From an uncultured Kangiella sp. (GTDB lineage: Bacteria; Pseudomonadota; Gammaproteobacteria; Enterobacterales; Kangiellaceae), in contig CATNCP010000002.1 in assembly GCA_950096615.1 (NCBI GenBank), positions 61,270 to 125,269 on the forward strand: a stretch of DNA of 64,000 nucleotides, written 5' to 3'. The position numbers were made by a program, and so were the translations under genes. Positions 2,125 to 10,941 of this stretch are shown here, piece by piece. The notes below the pieces were generated by a model. The model searched no databases. It was not told where the DNA came from and saw only the letters and a program-made list of their open reading frames with translations. Each line of letters opens with the position of its first letter. The first letter of the stretch is position 1.

Positions 2125-2771
2125 AATTATGTATTCCTAAATCCATGACTTTTAATTGTTATCAATGCACTGCCAGTTTCAGGTACTCGCCGAGTGCAGT
2201 CTGATGAGTTTTCTGCCTGATAAAGAGGCTTAACTCAACCTGTTGGACAGTGTAGATCCATCCACTATAAATATCCACAGTTTTAATAAAAAAAAAACAT
2301 AAATTGTGAGTAAAAGTATTTTTGGTCACCGGGGATGAATTGCACAGAAAGCAAACAAAACACGACCAAAAGGACAAGTTGTGACTAAATAATGTATAAA
2401 AACAGGTTAAAACTGTGTAGAAGTGGGTGTAACGTCATAAAAAGCAACTTATCCATTTTTAGATCTCAGGTTATAAGACACGTTATAAACTGGTTTATTA
2501 CTAATGTAAGCTTATGTTTTTATGATTAATAATAAACTTATCAACAGATATTAGTTTACTTAATAATAATAATAAGATCTTTAAATATATATTTATAATA
2601 ATTACTCGCTAACTTTTCCAATATGAAACAACTGAACTGAGTTAATAGCATAAATTTAATAAAAAACCTTTAAATTTAAATAAATTGGCTTTTTTTAAGG
2701 AAATGGAGCAATATAGAACCTGTCGATAAAGATATAATTATCCACAGTTGGCTGATAGTGGAAGTGTATAG

Positions 2772-2817
2772 ATACCACATCTAGTGGTTGTAAGAGAATT
2801 TGGTCACTATATAGATG
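2772..2817. promoter_or_regulatory. Putative tandem NrdR-box-like operators
   Basis: ataCCACATCTAGtgg (2772-2787) and ggtCACTATATAGatg (2802-2817) compared with consensus acaCwAtATaTwGtgt; 30 bp apart. The second has a mismatch at a conserved A. Confidence 0.45.
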
Positions 2818-2865
2818 ATGTTTTAGGAAACTATTGCAAACCCTTAAAAAATAAGGGCTGGAGCA

Positions 2866-2894
2866 TTGCAATCACTTACCAATTCCTATAAAAT
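2866..2894 (+). promoter_or_regulatory. sigma70-type promoter of the rpmH-rnpA-yidD-yidC operon
   Basis: TTGCAA (2866-2871), 17-bp spacer, TAAAAT (2889-2894). Confidence 0.6.
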
Positions 2895-2982
2895 TCCGCG
2901 TCCTTGTAGTTATTGTCACAAACTAATGCCTACTAAGGGCGTTACTTATTGTGAATAAAATTTATGTTGATGGGTTAAGCAG

Positions 2983-3117
2983 ATGAAAAGAACATTTCAA
3001 CCAAGCGTCATTAAGCGTAAGCGTGTACACGGTTTCCGTGCTCGTATGGCGACAAAAAATGGCCGTAAAATTTTAGCTAACCGCCGTGCAAAAGGCCGTA
3101 AGCGTTTAAGCGCTTAA
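2983..3117 (+). CDS. rpmH: 50S ribosomal protein L34
   Basis: Below the ORF-track cutoff. Manual translation [44 protein letters not shown]. Confidence 0.99.
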
Positions 3118-3149
3118 TAGCGGTAGATAAAATATTTGAATTCTTTGAT

Positions 3150-3536
3150 GTGAGTGAGACGACGATAACCGATAAGGCCAAGATATTTGGTTTTCCTAGG
3201 GATCGTCGATTGCTCACAGCAGAGGATTACAAAAAAGTCTTTAGCAACCCAGTTAAGCTGGTTTGCCCTCCTTTCACACTTCTAGCGATTTCAAGCGAGT
3301 CGAATCATCCTCGGTTGGGATTAATCGTGGCTAAAAAAAACGTTAAGTCTGCCGTTAAGCGTAACCGCTTAAAGCGATTAGCGCGTCAATCGTTCCGTTT
3401 GCATCAAAACGAATTACCGACTATTGATATTGTTTTATTAGCCCGTCGCGGTAGTAGTGATATGCCTAATGAGGTATTATTCGAGCACCTCAATCGACTT
3501 TGGTCGCGAGCAAAAAAGAAATGCAGTGGTTACTGA
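3150..3536 (+). CDS. rnpA: Ribonuclease P protein component
   Basis: RLGLIVAKKNVKSAVKRNRLKR (RNR motif); synteny after rpmH. Confidence 0.97.
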   Translation: MSETTITDKAKIFGFPRDRRLLTAEDYKKVFSNPVKLVCPPFTLLAISSESNHPRLGLIVAKKNVKSAVKRNRLKRLARQSFRLHQNELPTIDIVLLARRGSSDMPNEVLFEHLNRLWSRAKKKCSGY

Positions 3537-3769
3537 TAAAATTAGTACGACTTTACCAGTTAGTATTAAGTCCAGTTATGGGCAATCAATGCCGTTTTGC
3601 ACCAACCTGCTCGAATTATTCTATCGAGGCACTAGAGAAACACGGGGCTATGCGTGGCAGTTGGCTGACCATTAAAAGAATTGGTCGTTGCCATCCTGGC
3701 TGCGAAGGTGGACACGATCCTGTACCCACAAATCATTCGATCCAACAAACAAAAGCTGTTAAAGAGTAG
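3521..3769 (+). CDS. yidD: Membrane protein insertion efficiency factor
   Basis: CRFAPTCSNY...RCHP motif. ATG at 3521 (MQWLL) preferred over the track start 3500. Confidence 0.93.
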   Translation: MQWLLIKLVRLYQLVLSPVMGNQCRFAPTCSNYSIEALEKHGAMRGSWLTIKRIGRCHPGCEGGHDPVPTNHSIQQTKAVKE

Positions 3770-3772
3770 ATT

Positions 3773-5401
3773 ATGGAATCAATGCGCGGATTTTTTATTC
3801 TGGGCCTAGCGGTATGTACTTTTTTGTTATACCAAGCTTGGCAAAAAGATTATGGCCCTCAACCTTCTCAACAAGAGAGTGTCGCTGAACAGGGCGACGT
3901 TGCTGTCGTTAGCAACAATACAGCTGTTAGCAGCGACAACTTAGTGACAGTAGAAACAGATTTAGTCAGCTATCGCATAGAGCCTAATGGCGGTGATATC
4001 GTTTATGCTGAGTTAAAGCAGTACAACGTTGAGTTGGATAAAACAGAAAATAAAGTTGTGTTGTTTGATTATCGTGATCGGATGTATCAAGCAAAAAGTG
4101 CTTTATTGGGCCAAGGTGCTCCAGATAACCAGCTGCCTAGAGCTAGTTACTCTACTGAGAAGAAAAGCTACACGTTAGCAGAAGGTGAAGAAACGTTAAC
4201 GGTGCCATTAAGTTGGACAAATAGCGCCGGTGTGACATTTAAAAAGAGTTTCACTTTCACCCGAGGCCAGTACTTGATTAATATGGCTTACAGCATCGAT
4301 AACCAGTCTGCTAACGATAGAACCTATAACTTTGTTGCAGAGTTAGCGCGCGACCAAAAGCCAACAGGTCTGGAAGAAAAATCTTCTTTTGGTATGAAGC
4401 CATTCATGGGCGTGGCCTACTCTCCTGAAGAACAGCAGTATGAAAAGGTTGATTTTGAAGAGCTGGAAGAAGAGCCTATTAAAACTTCTCGTCAAGGTGG
4501 ATGGGTTGGCTTTTTACAGCACTATTTCATTGCTGCTTGGATTCCGCCACAAGATCAACAGATTAATATCACCAGTTCTGTAAAACCAAACAAAGACACC
4601 ACAATCCGCTTTGTTCAACCAACGGTTTCGGTTCCGGCTGGGCAAGCAAAAACCATTAATGCTGATTTGTACGTCGGACCTAAAGATTTAGAGCAACTGG
4701 AAGCAGCAGCTCCGGGCTTAGATAAGTCGTTGGATTTAAGTTGGGTGTGGTGGATTGGTTTACCACTCTATAAGTTGATGCAGTTTTTCCATAGCTTCCT
4801 AGCGAACTGGGGCCTGGCGATTATCTTGGTCACAATCGTTATCAAAACATTGCTTTATCCATTGTCGGCGGCGCAATACCGTTCGATGGCTAACATGCGA
4901 AAATTACAGCCAAAAATGCAACGTTTGAAAGAACGTTATGGCGATGATAAACAGCGTATGCAGCAAGAAATGATGAAAATGTACAAAGAAGAAGGTGCTA
5001 ACCCATTCGGTGGTTGTTTGCCGATGTTGTTACAGTTCCCGATTTTCATCGCCTTGTATTATGTATTGTTTGAAGCAGTTGAACTAAGGCATGCACCTTT
5101 CTTCGGTTGGATTCAGGATTTATCGGTAGCTGATCCCTACTTCGTATTACCGTTATTGATGGGCGGAAGTATGTGGTTAATGCAGCGTTTACAACCAAAA
5201 TCACCAACCATGGATCAGATGCAGCAAAAGATCATGAGTTATCTACCGGTTGTGTTTACAGTGTTCATGCTGTTCTTCCCTGCTGGTTTGGTTTTATATT
5301 GGTTGTGTAACAACTTGATATCAGTAGCGCAGCAACAATACGTCACTAAGAAAGTTGAGAATGCTCCTGATAAGCCCAAAAAAGCTATCAAGAAAAAATA
5401 G
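3773..5401 (+). CDS. yidC: Membrane protein insertase YidC
   Basis: N-terminal TM, periplasmic domain, NWGLAIILVT, GGCLPMLLQFPIF, GLVLYW. Confidence 0.98.
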   Translation: MESMRGFFILGLAVCTFLLYQAWQKDYGPQPSQQESVAEQGDVAVVSNNTAVSSDNLVTVETDLVSYRIEPNGGDIVYAELKQYNVELDKTENKVVLFDYRDRMYQAKSALLGQGAPDNQLPRASYSTEKKSYTLAEGEETLTVPLSWTNSAGVTFKKSFTFTRGQYLINMAYSIDNQSANDRTYNFVAELARDQKPTGLEEKSSFGMKPFMGVAYSPEEQQYEKVDFEELEEEPIKTSRQGGWVGFLQHYFIAAWIPPQDQQINITSSVKPNKDTTIRFVQPTVSVPAGQAKTINADLYVGPKDLEQLEAAAPGLDKSLDLSWVWWIGLPLYKLMQFFHSFLANWGLAIILVTIVIKTLLYPLSAAQYRSMANMRKLQPKMQRLKERYGDDKQRMQQEMMKMYKEEGANPFGGCLPMLLQFPIFIALYYVLFEAVELRHAPFFGWIQDLSVADPYFVLPLLMGGSMWLMQRLQPKSPTMDQMQQKIMSYLPVVFTVFMLFFPAGLVLYWLCNNLISVAQQQYVTKKVENAPDKPKKAIKKK

Positions 5402-5438
5402 GTTCTCGTAGGACTTATTCACGAATTGGAGTGAGATA

Positions 5439-6806
5439 GTGTCAGCCAATAATACGCAAGACACCATAGCTGCGATTGCAACGCCTCCCGGTCGTGGAGG
5501 CGTTGGTATTATTAGGGTGTCTGGCAAGCTTGCGGAAACGGTTGCACAAAAAATCGTAAAGAAATCTCTCACCGTTAGAGAAGCCACTTACCTTCCTTTC
5601 TATGATGAAAAAGATACCGTTTTGGATGAAGGTATCGCACTATTTTTCAAAGCACCAAACTCCTTTACCGGTGAAGATGTCCTTGAGTTACAAGGTCATG
5701 GCGGCCCGGTCATATTAGATTTATTACTCAAGGAAATTATAAAGCTAGACGTTCGACTCGCGCGTCCTGGTGAATTTTCTGAGCGCGCATTTCTCAATGA
5801 TAAATTAGACTTGGCGCAAGCAGAAGCGATTGCCGATCTGATCGAGTCAACCTCAGAGCATGCGGCTCGCTCCGCGGTTCGATCATTGCAGGGTGAGTTC
5901 TCGCAAAAAGTTCATGAGTTGGTGGAAGCGCTGATCCGTTTGCGAATTTATGTGGAAGCGGCTATCGACTTTCCTGAAGAAGAAATTGATTTCTTATCTG
6001 ATGGTAAAGTGCTGGGTGACTTGAATTCGATTATAGACAATATCGAAGACTTACAAAGCCAAGCGCAACAAGGCTCAATTTTGCGCGAAGGAATGACTGT
6101 GGTGATCGCAGGAAAACCGAACGCAGGTAAATCCAGTTTACTCAATGCCTTAGCGGGTAAAGACTCAGCCATTGTTACTGACATTCCGGGTACAACACGT
6201 GATGTTCTACGTGAGCACATTCATATTGATGGACTTCCCGTCCATATCATCGATACCGCTGGTCTGCGTGAGTCAGACGATAAAGTGGAGCAAATTGGTA
6301 TCGAGCGTGCTTGGAACGAAATTGAACAAGCGGATCAAATTATCTTAGTCGCGGACTCAAGCGAAACACAAGAATTTACACCGCATGCCATTGACCCAGC
6401 TTTTGAGCGATTCGAGCCGTTTAAAGAAAAGCTCTTAATCGTTGCCAATAAAATTGATGTCTCACAACTCGACAATCAATCTTTAAACTCAGACTATAAA
6501 ACCATTGCCATCAGCGCCAAAGACGGTACTGGCATTGGTGAGCTTAAGTCCGAGTTAAAACAAATTGTCGGTTACCAGCAAAATACCGAAGGGGCATTCC
6601 TCGCCCGCCGTAGACACCTAGACGCTATTGAGCGCGCCTTATCGTTTTGCTACTTAGGCAAAGAGCAATTAGTAGATTTTAATGCGGGTGAGCTGCTAGC
6701 GGATGAATTACGCCAAGCGCAAAATTCACTGTCAGAAATCACTGGTGAATTTAGTGCTGATGATTTGCTAGGAAGAATCTTTAGCAGCTTTTGTATTGGT
6801 AAGTAG
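5439..6806 (+). CDS. mnmE: tRNA modification GTPase MnmE (TrmE)
   Basis: [32 protein letters not shown]-terminal FCIGK. Confidence 0.99.
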
Positions 6807-6898
6807 CTCACAAATACTGATTAAATCTCAGACTTTGGTTTTAATACCCTCCTTTTTATTATAATTTTATTGTTCGAACCATTATACAGGGAGTGTGT

Positions 6899-7354
6899 AT
6901 GATCCAATCAAAAGTAACCCCAAAAAATATTGATCAGCTAATCGCGATCATTCAAAACGAATTTCCCAAAAGTAAAATTAGAGTAACAGGTAAAGCTAGA
7001 ACACTCCGAAGGCAGGCAGAGTTGATGGCCCAGAGGATAAGAGTCTATAGACTTGAGTTCCTGAAAACTTATCGAAGAAGACAACATATTGTAGAAATGG
7101 ATACGTGGTATAGCACTAATAAAGGAGCTACCTTTACTCAAACAGTAGATGAGTTTGAAAAAATTATTATTAGGGCAAGATCTCGTGGTGCCTTAGTTTC
7201 TAATCATCTATCAAATACTGCTAGAGATATTAGCTGGCCACACGGGACATATATAGAGTTAGATAAGATTGAAGCAAGAATAAACCAGCTGGGTGCCTCT
7301 GTGATTAGAGAGCCAAAAGCTGCAGGAGGGAGGCACTGGCATGTGGATTGGTAA
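6899..7354 (+). CDS. Putative M15/LAS-family zinc peptidase (peptidoglycan hydrolase-like, candidate toxin)
   Basis: VTGKARTLRRQ (resembles M15 vtSgyR...Q), SNHLSNTARDI (H-x6-D), HWHVDW (HxH). No signal peptide. ATG 6899 follows AGGGAG. Confidence 0.65.
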   Translation: MIQSKVTPKNIDQLIAIIQNEFPKSKIRVTGKARTLRRQAELMAQRIRVYRLEFLKTYRRRQHIVEMDTWYSTNKGATFTQTVDEFEKIIIRARSRGALVSNHLSNTARDISWPHGTYIELDKIEARINQLGASVIREPKAAGGRHWHVDW

Positions 7355-7829
7355 AGCGTTATTCATATCTTTAGTTGTGATATTAAGTGTACAAGGCTGC
7401 GGTAAAAAGAGCGTAGCTAACCAATCAAAACCACTAAAGACTAATTATGCTTGGTGGTTAACCGAAGAGGTAAAGCTTGAAGAGCATACAACAAGAAGAC
7501 TCTTAGATATAGACGACTTTAAGAGTGTGGGAGGTGCGAGTAGTGATATTAATAACTCTAAACTAAGATTCACTGTGTTTTCAGATTTGAACAAAGATGG
7601 GATAAAAGAAAAATATCAATCAGGAGTTTATGAAGAAAATGGCGAAAGTGGTACTTTTGTTGTAGTGACTCAGAAAGATGAAGAGTTAATCATTCTAAAA
7701 AGAAAAGGGGAAAAGTTGTTTAACGCTTTGCTTGTGGATAATGGTAGGGTGTTTTGGTTTGATTGTATGGAGTGTGATAACTTTGAAGAAATAAGATGGA
7801 GCACAAAGTCTGGTTATTATTTATGGTGA
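7341..7829 (+). CDS. Hypothetical lipoprotein (candidate immunity protein)
   Basis: Hydrophobic signal ending VQG|C; overlaps the upstream gene by 14 bp; DLNKDG loop and CMEC motif. Confidence 0.65.
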   Translation: MWIGKALFISLVVILSVQGCGKKSVANQSKPLKTNYAWWLTEEVKLEEHTTRRLLDIDDFKSVGGASSDINNSKLRFTVFSDLNKDGIKEKYQSGVYEENGESGTFVVVTQKDEELIILKRKGEKLFNALLVDNGRVFWFDCMECDNFEEIRWSTKSGYYLW

Positions 7830-7856
7830 GGTTCTTTGAGTCCTATTAAAGCATAA

Positions 7857-8711
7857 TTAATTACCTTCAAACGTATCACAGGATCCAACTAGGCCTGTAT
7901 TCGCTCCACGGTTAAACCAGTCCATACGTTCTTTTGAAGAGCCGTGAGTAAAATTTTCACGGCGTGGTGGCACACCAGCTCGTTTCATGAGCGTGTCATC
8001 ACCAACTGCTTCTGCTGCGGATAGTGCTTCTTCCAGATCACCTGACTCTAAGAATTGAGTGCGTTGTTGGGTCTGGTTTGCCCACACACCCGCGAGACAG
8101 TCAGCTTGCAGTTCCATTTTGACTTGTAAGGCGTTCTGCCCTGCTTTGTTGGTTTGGCTTTGTGCTTTGCGCACTTTGCTGGAGATACCGGTTACGGTTT
8201 GAATGTGATGCCCCACTTCATGTGCGAGGACATAGGCAACAGCGAAATCTCCGCTGGCTCCCATACGTTTTAGCTCAGCGAGAAAACTTAAATCTAAATA
8301 AATCTTTTGATCCGCTGGGCAGTAAAAAGGGCCTGAGGCTGCTTGGCCGGTTCCACAAGCGGTCGGTGTCCTATCACGATAAATAACTAAGGTTGGATGT
8401 GGGTATTTTGCATTGGATTGACGGTAAATATGAGTCCAAGTATCTTCAGTATCGGCTAACACCACACTGACAAAATCGTAGACATCTTGTTCTTCCGCCG
8501 AGGGTTGGTAGTTAGTTTGTTCTGTGGACGTACTTTGAGACGATTGGCCCCCAACCATGCCAGAAACAACTTGCATCGGATCTTGCTTGAACACAAAGAT
8601 CGCAATAAGCGCCATGATAATACCGCCAATGCTAAACTTAGCGCCGGACTTCATGCGCTGCCTTCGGCGATCATCAATATTTCTACTGCGTCTACGGTTT
8701 CTCCACTTCAT
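7857..8711 (-). CDS. ypfJ: Neutral zinc metallopeptidase, YpfJ family
   Basis: MKWRNRRRSRNIDDRR N-terminus, GPFYCPADQKIYLD, AHEVGHHIQ, ELQADCLAG, FTHGSS. Confidence 0.9.
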   Translation of the reverse strand: MKWRNRRRSRNIDDRRRQRMKSGAKFSIGGIIMALIAIFVFKQDPMQVVSGMVGGQSSQSTSTEQTNYQPSAEEQDVYDFVSVVLADTEDTWTHIYRQSNAKYPHPTLVIYRDRTPTACGTGQAASGPFYCPADQKIYLDLSFLAELKRMGASGDFAVAYVLAHEVGHHIQTVTGISSKVRKAQSQTNKAGQNALQVKMELQADCLAGVWANQTQQRTQFLESGDLEEALSAAEAVGDDTLMKRAGVPPRRENFTHGSSKERMDWFNRGANTGLVGSCDTFEGN

Positions 8712-8880
8712 TGTGGTGTCCTCTAACTGTTATTGTCTCTAGGTTGGTGAATTAAGAATAATCCAAGACGAGAACGAAAGGCAAGTTGGCGGTTGTGATT
8801 TAAATAAATATTACAGGATAGGGTTAGGAGGTAAAGGTATTATAAGTCAAGGTGAGGCAGCCGCCCCACCTTGGTTCATG

Positions 8881-10185
8881 CTACTGATCTTTTTCTAGTT
8901 CCTCGCGCTTAACTGATTCAGGCTCAACTTCACGACGGACTCTAAGATCCTTAATTTCATTAATTCTGAATGGCATTTCTAGATAGTTACCCGATGAAAT
9001 GTAGGTTTTAATGCGCGCGGTTGCTCCAGAAACAGAATTCACTGTGCCAACATAGCTTTTACTACGATAGTTGAAGCGAGCTTCGTAACCAATGTAAGCG
9101 CCTAAGTTAGCTGGTGAAGTCGATTGCAAGGTTAGCCCTTGAACTCGAGTAAGGTTATCGTCTTTAACTTCTACCACCTGATCCAATTCAGGGAGTTCTG
9201 AAGGCAACGGCGGGTTGCCGAATAACTGAAGCACGCGTTTGTCGTTGAAAAATATTCGCATGCTTAGAGCGCTCATCATGCGTTGAGGCGACATATTCAT
9301 GATTTCCATCGAGTTAATGGCGTCGGCAGGATAACTTTCTAACTTAATACTGCGCGGCTGACGGATATATTCTTCGTAAGCCGTATAAAAATCTTCACTG
9401 AAATGAAGGTTGTTATCGTAAAGTACGTGACGAAGATAATCGATGTGTCGTTGGTAATACTGTTCTAGCTCTAACCCTTCAAGATCAGCACAATATTTAA
9501 ATAAACGCTTAGTCAACTCAGGTGTGGCCGACTCCATGGTAATGGATTTTAATTTTGGGTTTTGTACCAAAGCATTAGGATTAATTTGTTCGAGTAAGAA
9601 ATCCATGTTGAAACTTCCGTACTCACCTGCATTAACGTACATATTCCAGTTAGCTTGATTAATATGCTTGTCGTAAGTGATGTCGGTGCTGAAGTCCATG
9701 GTGACTTGCTCATACCCCATCGCATTTAAATCGCTCACATCAAGAGAGTCTTTATTATCGCAACCAGCCATTGATATTTGAGTAAACAAATCAGGCTCTG
9801 CTTGGAAAGAAGAGTTTGAGTCCATGGATGAAGTTAATGGAAACTGCAGTTGCTTGATCTCTGCACCCATGTCTTGCACGCCACCAAAGTATTGCCCTGA
9901 CTCAATGGAGCGGACTAATTTAAAGGACTGGAATAAGCTGTTGGTGCCAAAGCGTAATTCTTTGATAGTCGCTTTTTGAGCGGAGCCAGGAACCGTGATT
10001 TCAATATCAGTGGTTACAGACTTACCATCAAAACTAACATAGGTAGAGTCATAACTGGCCGGGCTTTGCATTTTTATAAACGTAAAGACGTTATCGATCA
10101 TCTGCTTATTTTTATACCAGATATAACCGTAGGCTAATCCGGCAAGAATAAGAAGTATAATCAGTAATCGAGTAAAAAGTTTCAC
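8881..10185 (-). CDS. Hypothetical membrane-anchored periplasmic protein
   Basis: Long ORF with RBS (GGAAGGAG on the minus strand) and a single N-terminal TM helix; no motif recognised. Confidence 0.75.
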   Translation of the reverse strand: MKLFTRLLIILLILAGLAYGYIWYKNKQMIDNVFTFIKMQSPASYDSTYVSFDGKSVTTDIEITVPGSAQKATIKELRFGTNSLFQSFKLVRSIESGQYFGGVQDMGAEIKQLQFPLTSSMDSNSSFQAEPDLFTQISMAGCDNKDSLDVSDLNAMGYEQVTMDFSTDITYDKHINQANWNMYVNAGEYGSFNMDFLLEQINPNALVQNPKLKSITMESATPELTKRLFKYCADLEGLELEQYYQRHIDYLRHVLYDNNLHFSEDFYTAYEEYIRQPRSIKLESYPADAINSMEIMNMSPQRMMSALSMRIFFNDKRVLQLFGNPPLPSELPELDQVVEVKDDNLTRVQGLTLQSTSPANLGAYIGYEARFNYRSKSYVGTVNSVSGATARIKTYISSGNYLEMPFRINEIKDLRVRREVEPESVKREELEKDQ

Positions 10186-10227
10186 CAGCCTCTCCTTCCT
10201 ATGTTTAATTGTTAAATCTGAGGTTAC

Positions 10228-10941
10228 TTACGCAAGCAGCAGGATACTGGCATTGTAGCTTGCGTGGCATAAAATCGGGCCAAGGGTGGAGCGACTATAT
10301 TGACGAAGTAGCGCCAAGAAAATCCCCAACAGTAAAATAGCGCTCATACCAACCCAGTAATCACTGTATTCTATTAGGTGGAAGCCCATAAATACAACTG
10401 CTGATGCACAGATTGCGACAATTGTGCCGAAGCGTTGCCGCAAAGAATCATAAAGAAGTCCGCGAAAGAGGTATTCTTCAAATGCCGGAGCAAGGCAAAC
10501 GGTGGCTATAAATAATACGGTCAATGCTATGGCGCCGTCTTGTTTGATCAGGGCAAAAGTGTTGACGTCACCGGGTTGTGGCGGATAGTAATGACTGGCA
10601 AGGTTAACTACAGCGGCTATAGCGACACCAGTCACGATAGAAATCAATAACCAGAGAACGGATGACTTCAGTAGTGGTATAAAGCGGTTATGGAAATATT
10701 CTTTTGTCATCCATACCAGCAGGCCATAGGAAAAAAGGATGGATCCTGTGATAGATGCTATCAGTGCTAAGCCTGATGATTGACTGCTAACGGTGCGACC
10801 AGTTACGGGAAACAAGGGTTCAAAAAGCAGTAGCAATAGGCTGGTGGTAAGTGACAATATCAGTAAAGTCGCCAGCGCTAGCCACAAATGGTAAATAATT
10901 TGGATGTTACTATCCGTTTTATTGTTAGGCTGTTTGATCAA
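10228..10941 (-). CDS. CPBP (Abi/CAAX type II) intramembrane glutamic endopeptidase
   Basis: Multi-TM protein with PAFEEYLFRG, FMGFH and CHASYN motifs. Confidence 0.88.
   Translation of the reverse strand: MIKQPNNKTDSNIQIIYHLWLALATLLILSLTTSLLLLLFEPLFPVTGRTVSSQSSGLALIASITGSILFSYGLLVWMTKEYFHNRFIPLLKSSVLWLLISIVTGVAIAAVVNLASHYYPPQPGDVNTFALIKQDGAIALTVLFIATVCLAPAFEEYLFRGLLYDSLRQRFGTIVAICASAVVFMGFHLIEYSDYWVGMSAILLLGIFLALLRQYSRSTLGPILCHASYNASILLLA

Follow-up and report, generated by a model that had tools for sequence, protein, structure and literature searches.

In a 64,000-nucleotide window of an uncultured Kangiella sp. genome (assembly GCA_950096615.1, contig CATNCP010000002.1), two overlapping genes next to mnmE most probably constitute a horizontally acquired, stand-alone interbacterial toxin-immunity pair, a reading to which we give a probability of about 60%. 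The toxin gene (ORF1, 6899-7354, + strand) encodes, from its ATG, a signal-less basic protein of 151 aa with a predicted LAS/M15-like zinc peptidase domain, and the immunity gene (ORF2, 7341-7829, + strand) encodes a 162-aa lipoprotein with its lipobox cysteine at position 20. As read here, the first product would be a zinc LAS/M15-type wall hydrolase and the second a periplasmic lipoprotein that protects against it, with a type VI secretion system (T6SS) as the likely means of delivery. A first-pass annotation of this DNA had described the two genes as a candidate new effector-immunity family, and that description is largely supported by the co-occurrence of the two families, by fusions of the toxin domain to larger proteins, and by the T6SS genes resident in this genome.

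The toxin belongs to a broadly distributed family. Homologues of ORF1 form 161 clusters (clustered at 90% identity) that are 54-89% identical, and they come from Lysobacter, Kangiellaceae, Nitrosomonas, Thiobacillus, Woeseiaceae, Mesorhizobium, Planctomycetota, Terriglobia and many metagenomes; none of the clusters has a Pfam domain, and every homologue with a named source goes under ‘hypothetical protein’ or under a label that is unrelated. In three annotated genomes the toxin gene sits in unrelated neighborhoods and is followed each time by a gene for a protein of ~175 aa without a Pfam match. A hidden Markov model (HMM) built from such downstream proteins finds a member of the same immunity family directly after the toxin gene in 65 of the 73 loci, drawn from many phyla, with 450 bp or more of sequence downstream. 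Co-occurrence of homologues of both genes had been set as a test of the pair in the first-pass annotation, and the result favors the pair.

The immunity family was recovered only through the neighbors of toxin homologues. A word-based homologue search with the window lipoprotein returned only itself, because the window copy is shorter and divergent (21-37% identical to its relatives). The immunity proteins are beta-rich, with 160-180 aa, and are addressed to the periplasm throughout the family: those of most lineages have a lipobox, and those of Acidobacteriota-type loci have a signal peptide without one. The family shares an AWW motif, a loop of the form DxxxDG and a C-x-x-C that never varies (C142 and C145 in the window protein), whose cysteines could form a periplasmic disulfide. 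In its AF2 model (pLDDT 80.6) the window protein is entirely beta beyond its signal peptide and a linker. Scans of the lipoprotein with Pfam, NCBIfam and PHROG assigned it to no family, and Foldseek gave no significant match in the PDB; homology to a DDB1 propeller blade was considered and set aside, the Foldseek matches being weak and partial only.

Within the locus, the start codon and Shine-Dalgarno sequence of the immunity gene are encoded by the GGRHWHV motif of the toxin, and the two genes are thereby physically interlocked. The segment involved spans 7325-7354 (+ strand): the immunity Shine-Dalgarno sequence, GGAGGGAGG, occupies 7325-7333 and, as the codons GGA-GGG-AGG, encodes toxin residues Gly143-Gly144-Arg145, while the toxin stop codon lies at 7352-7354. 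The immunity ATG (7341-7343) falls inside the toxin codons for His148 and Val149 (cATGtg; CAT-GTN in the Gamma/Betaproteobacterial clade). Of 66 distinct toxin 3′ ends, 35 have the ATG at this position, and in most of those 35 it opens a protein that begins M-[WLS]-[IT]-G-[KR] and continues into a signal peptide. The resulting overlap of 14 bp (7341-7354) had been reported in the first-pass annotation, as had the zinc triad motifs with an upstream arginine and the basic, signal-less character of the 151-aa protein, and all three descriptions hold: the ORF1 product (17.6 kDa) has a pI of 10.48 and an N-terminus that is not hydrophobic, and its motifs SNHLSNTARD (H103, D110), HWH (H146, H148) and R34 are all present. 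The ORF2 product, for its part, begins with a signal peptide that ends in the lipobox LSVQG-C.

Use of the domain as a C-terminal warhead is a second line of evidence. A full HMM search, covering 1.84 billion representative proteins, found the toxin domain at the extreme C-terminus of the RHS-repeat proteins P0125 (1757 aa), P0129 (2223 aa) and P0131 (1376 aa), and some of the RHS fusions also carry SpvB, FG-GAP and TcdB_midN regions. It is likewise C-terminal in two fragments, one with DUF2345, the VgrG C-terminal region (P0132), and one with DUF637, the CdiA/haemagglutinin pretoxin region (P0140). A Rheinheimera metagenome-assembled genome (MAG; locus L026) has an ORF of more than 2148 aa with SpvB, FG-GAP, TcdB_midN and RHS regions that ends in the domain, and an immunity-family member follows directly. 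The gene after the Rhs protein P0131 (locus L146) also belongs to the immunity family, and its product begins with a signal peptide and the motif AWWLDIEF; a search for long fusion proteins with the C-terminal region of P0131 returned only P0131 itself. Whether homologues are fused to VgrG, PAAR, Rhs or LysM had been proposed as a check on the pair, and it turned up the Rhs, DUF2345 and DUF637 forms together with LysM, PG_binding_1 and SH3 fusions among remote relatives.

The immunity gene also occurs without a toxin. In three loci (L128, L130, L032) it is preceded by only the last 17-28 codons of a toxin gene; L128 and L032 keep the immunity frame intact, and in L130 it is frameshifted. Interlocking of the genes would explain why orphan immunity genes always keep this 3′ remnant. 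In nine further loci (L019, L025, L027, L028, L029, L031, L103, L122, L124) the toxin frame is broken and the immunity gene is intact, with the reservation that frameshifts in MAG loci may be sequencing errors. Judged from the sequences, warhead fusions, orphan immunity remnants and broken toxin frames are the classical signature of toxin-immunity systems.

Two of the orphan immunity genes, those of L128 and L130, belong to islands that also hold a restriction system, a HipA-like kinase and further pairs of toxin/immunity-like type. In L128, the orphan copy adjoins two genes with a 4-bp overlap (534-1040 and 1037-1462) that encode a 168-aa signal-less protein followed by a 141-aa lipoprotein and resemble an effector/immunity pair. 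The L130 island (2223-10879) holds type I restriction hsdS/hsdM-like genes, the frameshifted immunity copy, another lipoprotein, and a HipA-like kinase that has an HTH partner; within it a 168-aa amidase-like ORF (6819-7325) is coupled to a gene for a 206-aa secreted protein (7325-7945). Two loci with the complete pair have neighbors of their own interest. In a Kangiellaceae MAG (L001, 2996-4618) the module comes directly after a BrnT/BrnA pair and a gene of the ADPRTs_Tse2 type, itself followed by a 71-aa gene; together they make up a small toxin island. In Nitrogeniibacter aestuarii (L002, 1738-5982) the pair comes directly after zur-znuCBA on the same strand, with a gap of 118 bp. A zinc-uptake operon beside a predicted zinc enzyme may be a coincidence; a link to zinc homeostasis was considered and rejected, as just one of three annotated neighborhoods had this arrangement.

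The insertion is recent, and horizontal transfer its probable origin: the pair was not found in 40 relatives, the site in the closest relative is empty, and its composition is deviant. Neither gene was found in the 40 related genomes searched, 23 of them from the same genus, which leaves the pair in 1 of 41. In the closest relative (G009) only ~83 bp separate mnmE from the next conserved gene, and the flanks are 87-91% identical in DNA to those of the window. The inserted segment, from the mnmE stop to the stop of that gene (6807-7856), measures 1,050 bp with 36.4% GC. Its left flank is mnmE (5439-6806, + strand), with 90-96% protein identity in sister genomes, and its right flank is a gene for a PF04228 putative neutral zinc metallopeptidase (Zn_peptidase; 7857-8711, - strand; Pfam E 1e-103), which is convergent with the pair, adjoins mnmE in sister genomes too and lies outside the module. 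The module has 37.1% GC, compared with 43.8% for the 64-kb window and 45.0% for mnmE, and falls within the lowest 2.8% of 931-bp windows. AGA and AGG make up 82% of arginine codons in the toxin gene and 100% in the immunity gene, and 0-18% in mnmE, yidC and mnmG.

The first-pass annotation had pointed to the low GC content and frequent AGA codons, which these figures confirm, and had called the mnmE 3′ end an insertion hotspot. The latter is borne out by the empty site and by variation across the genus, where the junction between mnmE and the Zn_peptidase gene ranges from ~83 bp to 5.3 kb and, at sizes of ~0.45 to 5.3 kb, holds unrelated ORFs; it behaves as a genus-wide variable spot. Six sister loci (L041-L046, from genomes G002, G007, G011, G006, G012 and G021) hold different small cargo in each species, including a 187-aa ORF, a 101-aa lipoprotein, a 244-aa ORF, a membrane protein with a 170-aa ORF, and a 95-aa ferritin-like ORF. 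The 1.05-kb insert was found to have neither an integrase nor direct repeats at its flanks. The mnmE 3′ end (6787-6802, ending ..FCIGK and stop) and the toxin 3′ end with the immunity start (7339-7354, MWIGK) are alike in 13 of 16 nt, including ATTGGTAA. This similarity does not match the insert boundaries and is probably due to chance.

What kind of enzyme the toxin might be can be judged from its motifs and from profile comparisons. An Arg..Q helix, S-x-H-x4-A-x-D and H-x-H occur in the order and spacing of the M15 signature, and R34, Q39, S101, H103, A108, D110, H146 and H148 are invariant among 39 aligned homologues that are 54-89% identical. The corresponding codons of the principal residues are R34 (6998-7000), H103 (7205-7207), D110 (7226-7228), H146 (7334-7336) and H148 (7340-7342), all on the + strand. 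The glycine of SxHxxGxAxD is replaced by N or D in the toxin clade and kept in remote relatives. The AF2 model of the toxin (pLDDT 88) has the expected order of strands and helices, with an extra helical insert of ~50 residues (44-95) that is absent from M15_3. For profile-profile comparison with hhalign, the superfamily profile was built with the remote relatives, as the narrow family alignment (A1) alone is uninformative (Neff 2). This profile scored 31.1 against M15_3 (P 1.6e-4), its global alignment was colinear across all three motif blocks (P 4e-5), and scores against M15_4 were 28.5 and 23.2. Controls gave 8.9-14.8, with reversed templates at 10-13, 30 column shuffles at no more than 14.8 and an unrelated family at 8.9. 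The hhalign probabilities are only 13-58%, and the comparison is moderate evidence of M15 similarity.

Remote relatives extend the picture. In 66 of them the same three blocks are present with the canonical glycine, the H, the D and the final H being invariant, and half (33 of 66) show weak, sub-threshold matches to PF08291 (Peptidase_M15_3), the best at E 1.9e-4. Some are fused to LysM, PG_binding_1 or SH3_3, and a nearer homologue from Planctomycetota (L020) carries PG_binding_1. Foldseek of the toxin model against BFVD, in a comparison aimed at the hedgehog/DD-peptidase fold, gave weak matches to phage ‘Peptidase M15’ proteins (E 0.1-0.4, probability 0.89-0.93, TM ~0.4). Taken together, the sequence comparisons place the toxin in a divergent family of LAS-like type that lies outside the M15 families now in Pfam. 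Its substrate is probably peptidoglycan, to judge from the wall-binding fusions and the periplasmic address of the immunity protein.

The members of one large remote clade (P0182-P0273, alignment A2) share the blocks TSGxRT..QA, ISxHLxGxAxDVRS and PHxH, and none reaches an M15 Pfam threshold. Their N-terminal regions are varied and include T4SS_pilin, LysM, SH3, eCIS core, pentapeptide repeats and WXG100.

As for delivery, this genome has two TssC, two Hcp, one PAAR and one VgrG gene, on contigs C19, C24, C34 and C38. TssC is present in 18 of the 23 other carrier genomes, against 66 of 300 (22%) in an even sample of the same class; the enrichment (Fisher P 6e-8, and 4.5e-5 once the Lysobacter and Mesorhizobium genomes are collapsed) is a rough figure in view of relatedness and differing taxonomy. 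Within the genus, TssC occurs in 8 of 23 other species, and the relative with the empty site lacks it. Among the homologous fragments only one, P0132, is fused to DUF2345. Cargo delivery by the T6SS is the most likely route in this genome as far as gene content indicates.

We propose the following mechanism. His103, Asp110 and His148 would bind the zinc ion, with His146 and Arg34 as catalytic helpers, and the toxin would be harmless in the cytoplasm of its producer. The resident T6SS would carry it as Hcp or VgrG cargo and inject it into the periplasm of a neighboring Gram-negative cell, where it would cleave peptide bonds of peptidoglycan. Translation of the immunity gene, which starts inside the His148 codon, would be coupled to that of the toxin gene, and the exported lipoprotein would bind and neutralize, in the periplasm, toxin arriving from sister cells. 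We infer zinc binding, the peptidoglycan substrate, toxicity, neutralization by direct binding and the T6SS route in this scheme, direct binding of the toxin by the immunity protein being argued by analogy. A more specific version, which we find doubtful, is an undescribed interlocked toxin-immunity family whose immunity protein may block the toxin through its cysteines. Speculatively, the C-x-x-C would insert a cysteine thiolate into the zinc site of the toxin, in an inhibition of the ‘cysteine-switch’ type. We know of no such inhibition among T6SS immunity proteins.

Several observations weigh against the toxin-immunity reading or parts of it. First, TssC, Hcp, PAAR and VgrG gave no match on the window's contig; the first-pass annotation had called the pair an orphan without vgrG, PAAR or hcp nearby, and these genes indeed lie on other contigs. 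Five of the 23 carrier genomes lack TssC, that of L026 among them, and the Rhs forms have SpvB and TcdB-type N-terminal regions. No known T6SS loading motif was identified in the toxin, MIX, FIX and RIX-type motifs not having been searched. Second, the toxin is conserved at 55-75% identity across classes, which is unusual for an effector, and stands beside an immunity protein that is divergent and short in the window. Third, the earlier claim of an M15 peptidase stands only in part: motifs, profile-profile scores and the weak Foldseek matches to phage M15 proteins favor it, whereas the database scans do not. Pfam, NCBIfam and PHROG scans of the toxin gave no match even at E 1, Foldseek against the PDB found nothing at E<0.001, its top 50 hits including no M15 structure, and phmmer and profile HMM searches of PDB sequences returned chance matches only, with no M15 entry. 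The toxin model also has a pTM of only 0.57.

The delivery results bear on the alternative that the genes are a toxin-immunity pair whose stand-alone toxin is not T6SS cargo. The toxin would then leave by another route (loaded into a cocoon of Rhs or Tc-like type, through a CDI-type system, in vesicles or on lysis), or the pair would be a spare cassette kept mainly for its immunity gene. Because there are SpvB/TcdB-type Rhs forms and a carrier without TssC in L026, the domain is not tied to the T6SS alone, and these forms appear to point to additional delivery routes. The long fusions with SpvB, FG-GAP, TcdB_midN and RHS architecture, the four other carriers without TssC, the missing T6SS gene linkage in the window and the nine loci with broken toxin frames beside intact immunity genes all fit such a scheme. 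On the other side are the enrichment of T6SS among carriers, the existence of a fusion to the VgrG C-terminal region, the intact toxin frame of the window with all motif residues kept, and the small size of the toxin, which suits Hcp or VgrG cargo. We regard this alternative as unlikely, while giving it real weight.

Another alternative concerns the target. A LAS-like polymorphic toxin might act on a substrate other than the peptidoglycan stem peptide, such as lipid II, the Lpp-peptidoglycan link or a periplasmic protein. The family lies below every M15 family threshold and matches no solved structure, its ~50-residue helical insert has no counterpart in M15_3, and the glycine of the signature is replaced in the toxin clade, all of which leave room for another specificity. 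Conservation of the full LAS triad and the arginine, the fusions of relatives to the cell-wall-binding domains LysM, PG_binding_1 and SH3_3, and the periplasmic address of the immunity protein argue for the wall instead, and another substrate seems improbable to us.

Two readings that dispense with a weapon fare poorly. The first is a domesticated lysis or type 10 secretion-like module, in which an endolysin-type M15 enzyme would act on the producer's own wall together with a spanin-like lipoprotein. Signal-less M15 endopeptidases are used in holin-dependent secretion, as in the Serratia ChiWXYZ system. The weak Foldseek matches to phage M15 endolysin-type proteins would fit, as would a weak NCBIfam ‘spanin2’ match (E 0.16) to the lipobox and signal-peptide region. 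The 1.05-kb insert has room for only two genes, and hence for no holin or other phage gene; there is no PHROG match; the lipoproteins, at 160-180 aa and beta-rich, are unlike short proline-rich o-spanins; and the fusions to Rhs, VgrG and DUF637, like the arrays with orphan immunity genes, suit toxins rather than lysis cassettes. We rejected a phage lysis cassette on the grounds of the two-gene insert, the PHROG result and the toxin-type fusions, and consider the module very unlikely. The second, a housekeeping or stress-induced wall remodelling enzyme with a lipoprotein regulator, zinc-responsive in one version, could cite the position after zur-znuCBA and the apparent signal peptides of the more distant family members P0136, P0138 and P0149, and was rejected as hardly tenable given the patchy presence of the pair (1 of 41 related genomes, unrelated neighborhoods), its foreign composition, the missing export signal of the window enzyme and the role that the domain has as warhead of Rhs and VgrG-type proteins.

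Remaining features of the locus concern expression and the surrounding genes. The toxin gene is preceded by a Shine-Dalgarno sequence, AGGGAG, read directly from the DNA (6888-6893, + strand), and an alternative GTG start at 6893 would give a product of 153 aa. A TATAAT hexamer lies upstream at 6860-6865 without a good -35 partner, and a scan for consensus promoters and terminators at the pair gave nothing useful. Between the Zn_peptidase gene and mnmG are two genes on the - strand, one for a protein of 434 aa that has a membrane anchor at its N-terminus and belongs to no Pfam family (8881-10185), the other for a 237-aa Rce1-like CPBP intramembrane protease (10228-10941).

The pair adds a widespread, unannotated toxin domain and its immunity family to the interbacterial weapons, with members from Gammaproteobacteria to Planctomycetota and Acidobacteriota. 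It offers a clean test case of a putative zinc LAS-type wall peptidase as a warhead on free-standing, Rhs, VgrG-type and CdiA-type scaffolds, and an example of how a single strain of marine type, with a small genome, gained genes at a variable mnmE junction. No new class of system is opened by it. Its organization is like that of Tse1-Tsi1, Tae4-Tai4 and other Tae/Tai and Tge/Tgi pairs, in which a small signal-less effector is followed immediately by a co-transcribed immunity gene whose product is periplasmic and often a lipoprotein, in which copies may be orphans away from the T6SS cluster, and whose distribution is patchy and shaped by horizontal transfer. Unlike the Tae enzymes, which are cysteine amidases (papain or NlpC/P60-like), and the Tge enzymes, which are glycoside hydrolases, the window toxin is predicted to be zinc LAS/M15-like, and its immunity protein matches no described immunity family.

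With the M15/LAS families (Peptidase_M15_3 of the YcbK/DUF882 type, Peptidase_M15_4, VanY and phage L-alanyl-D-glutamate endolysins) the toxin shares the order of motifs: a beta-strand and Arg..Q helix, S-x-H-x(4)-A-x-D, a helix, and a final H-x-H or H-x-D strand, with which the predicted topology agrees. It differs from these families in falling below Pfam thresholds and in its insert of ~50 helical residues between the Arg and His-Asp blocks, and from YcbK-type enzymes in having neither a signal peptide nor a Tat signal. It also resembles Rhs and CdiA polymorphic toxins, in that the domain can stand at the extreme C-terminus with the cognate immunity gene next to it, and in the orphan immunity genes with a 3′ toxin remnant. 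Unlike those toxins, the window domain is a free-standing protein of 151 aa without a scaffold, and its immunity protein is periplasmic, whereas their warheads mostly work in the cytoplasm.

The nearest precedents are the LysM and Peptidase M15 T6SS effectors of Neisseria (PMC10210955) and the Peptidase M15-like and MepA-like N-terminal domains of WHIX effectors (PMC12135965), which share with the proposed system the use of a LAS/M15 wall peptidase as a T6SS-delivered toxin with a neighboring immunity gene. Those domains are recognized as M15 by CDD or HHpred, are parts of multidomain proteins and lie beside T6SS genes, and we set them apart from the window family here by description only. The window family, unlike them, is unrecognized by Pfam and NCBIfam, mostly stand-alone and equipped with an immunity family of its own. 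Because M15-like T6SS effector domains are already listed on bioinformatic grounds (PMC10210955, PMC12135965), the pair represents new families, a LAS-like one of toxins and one of immunity proteins, of a kind of weapon that is already familiar.

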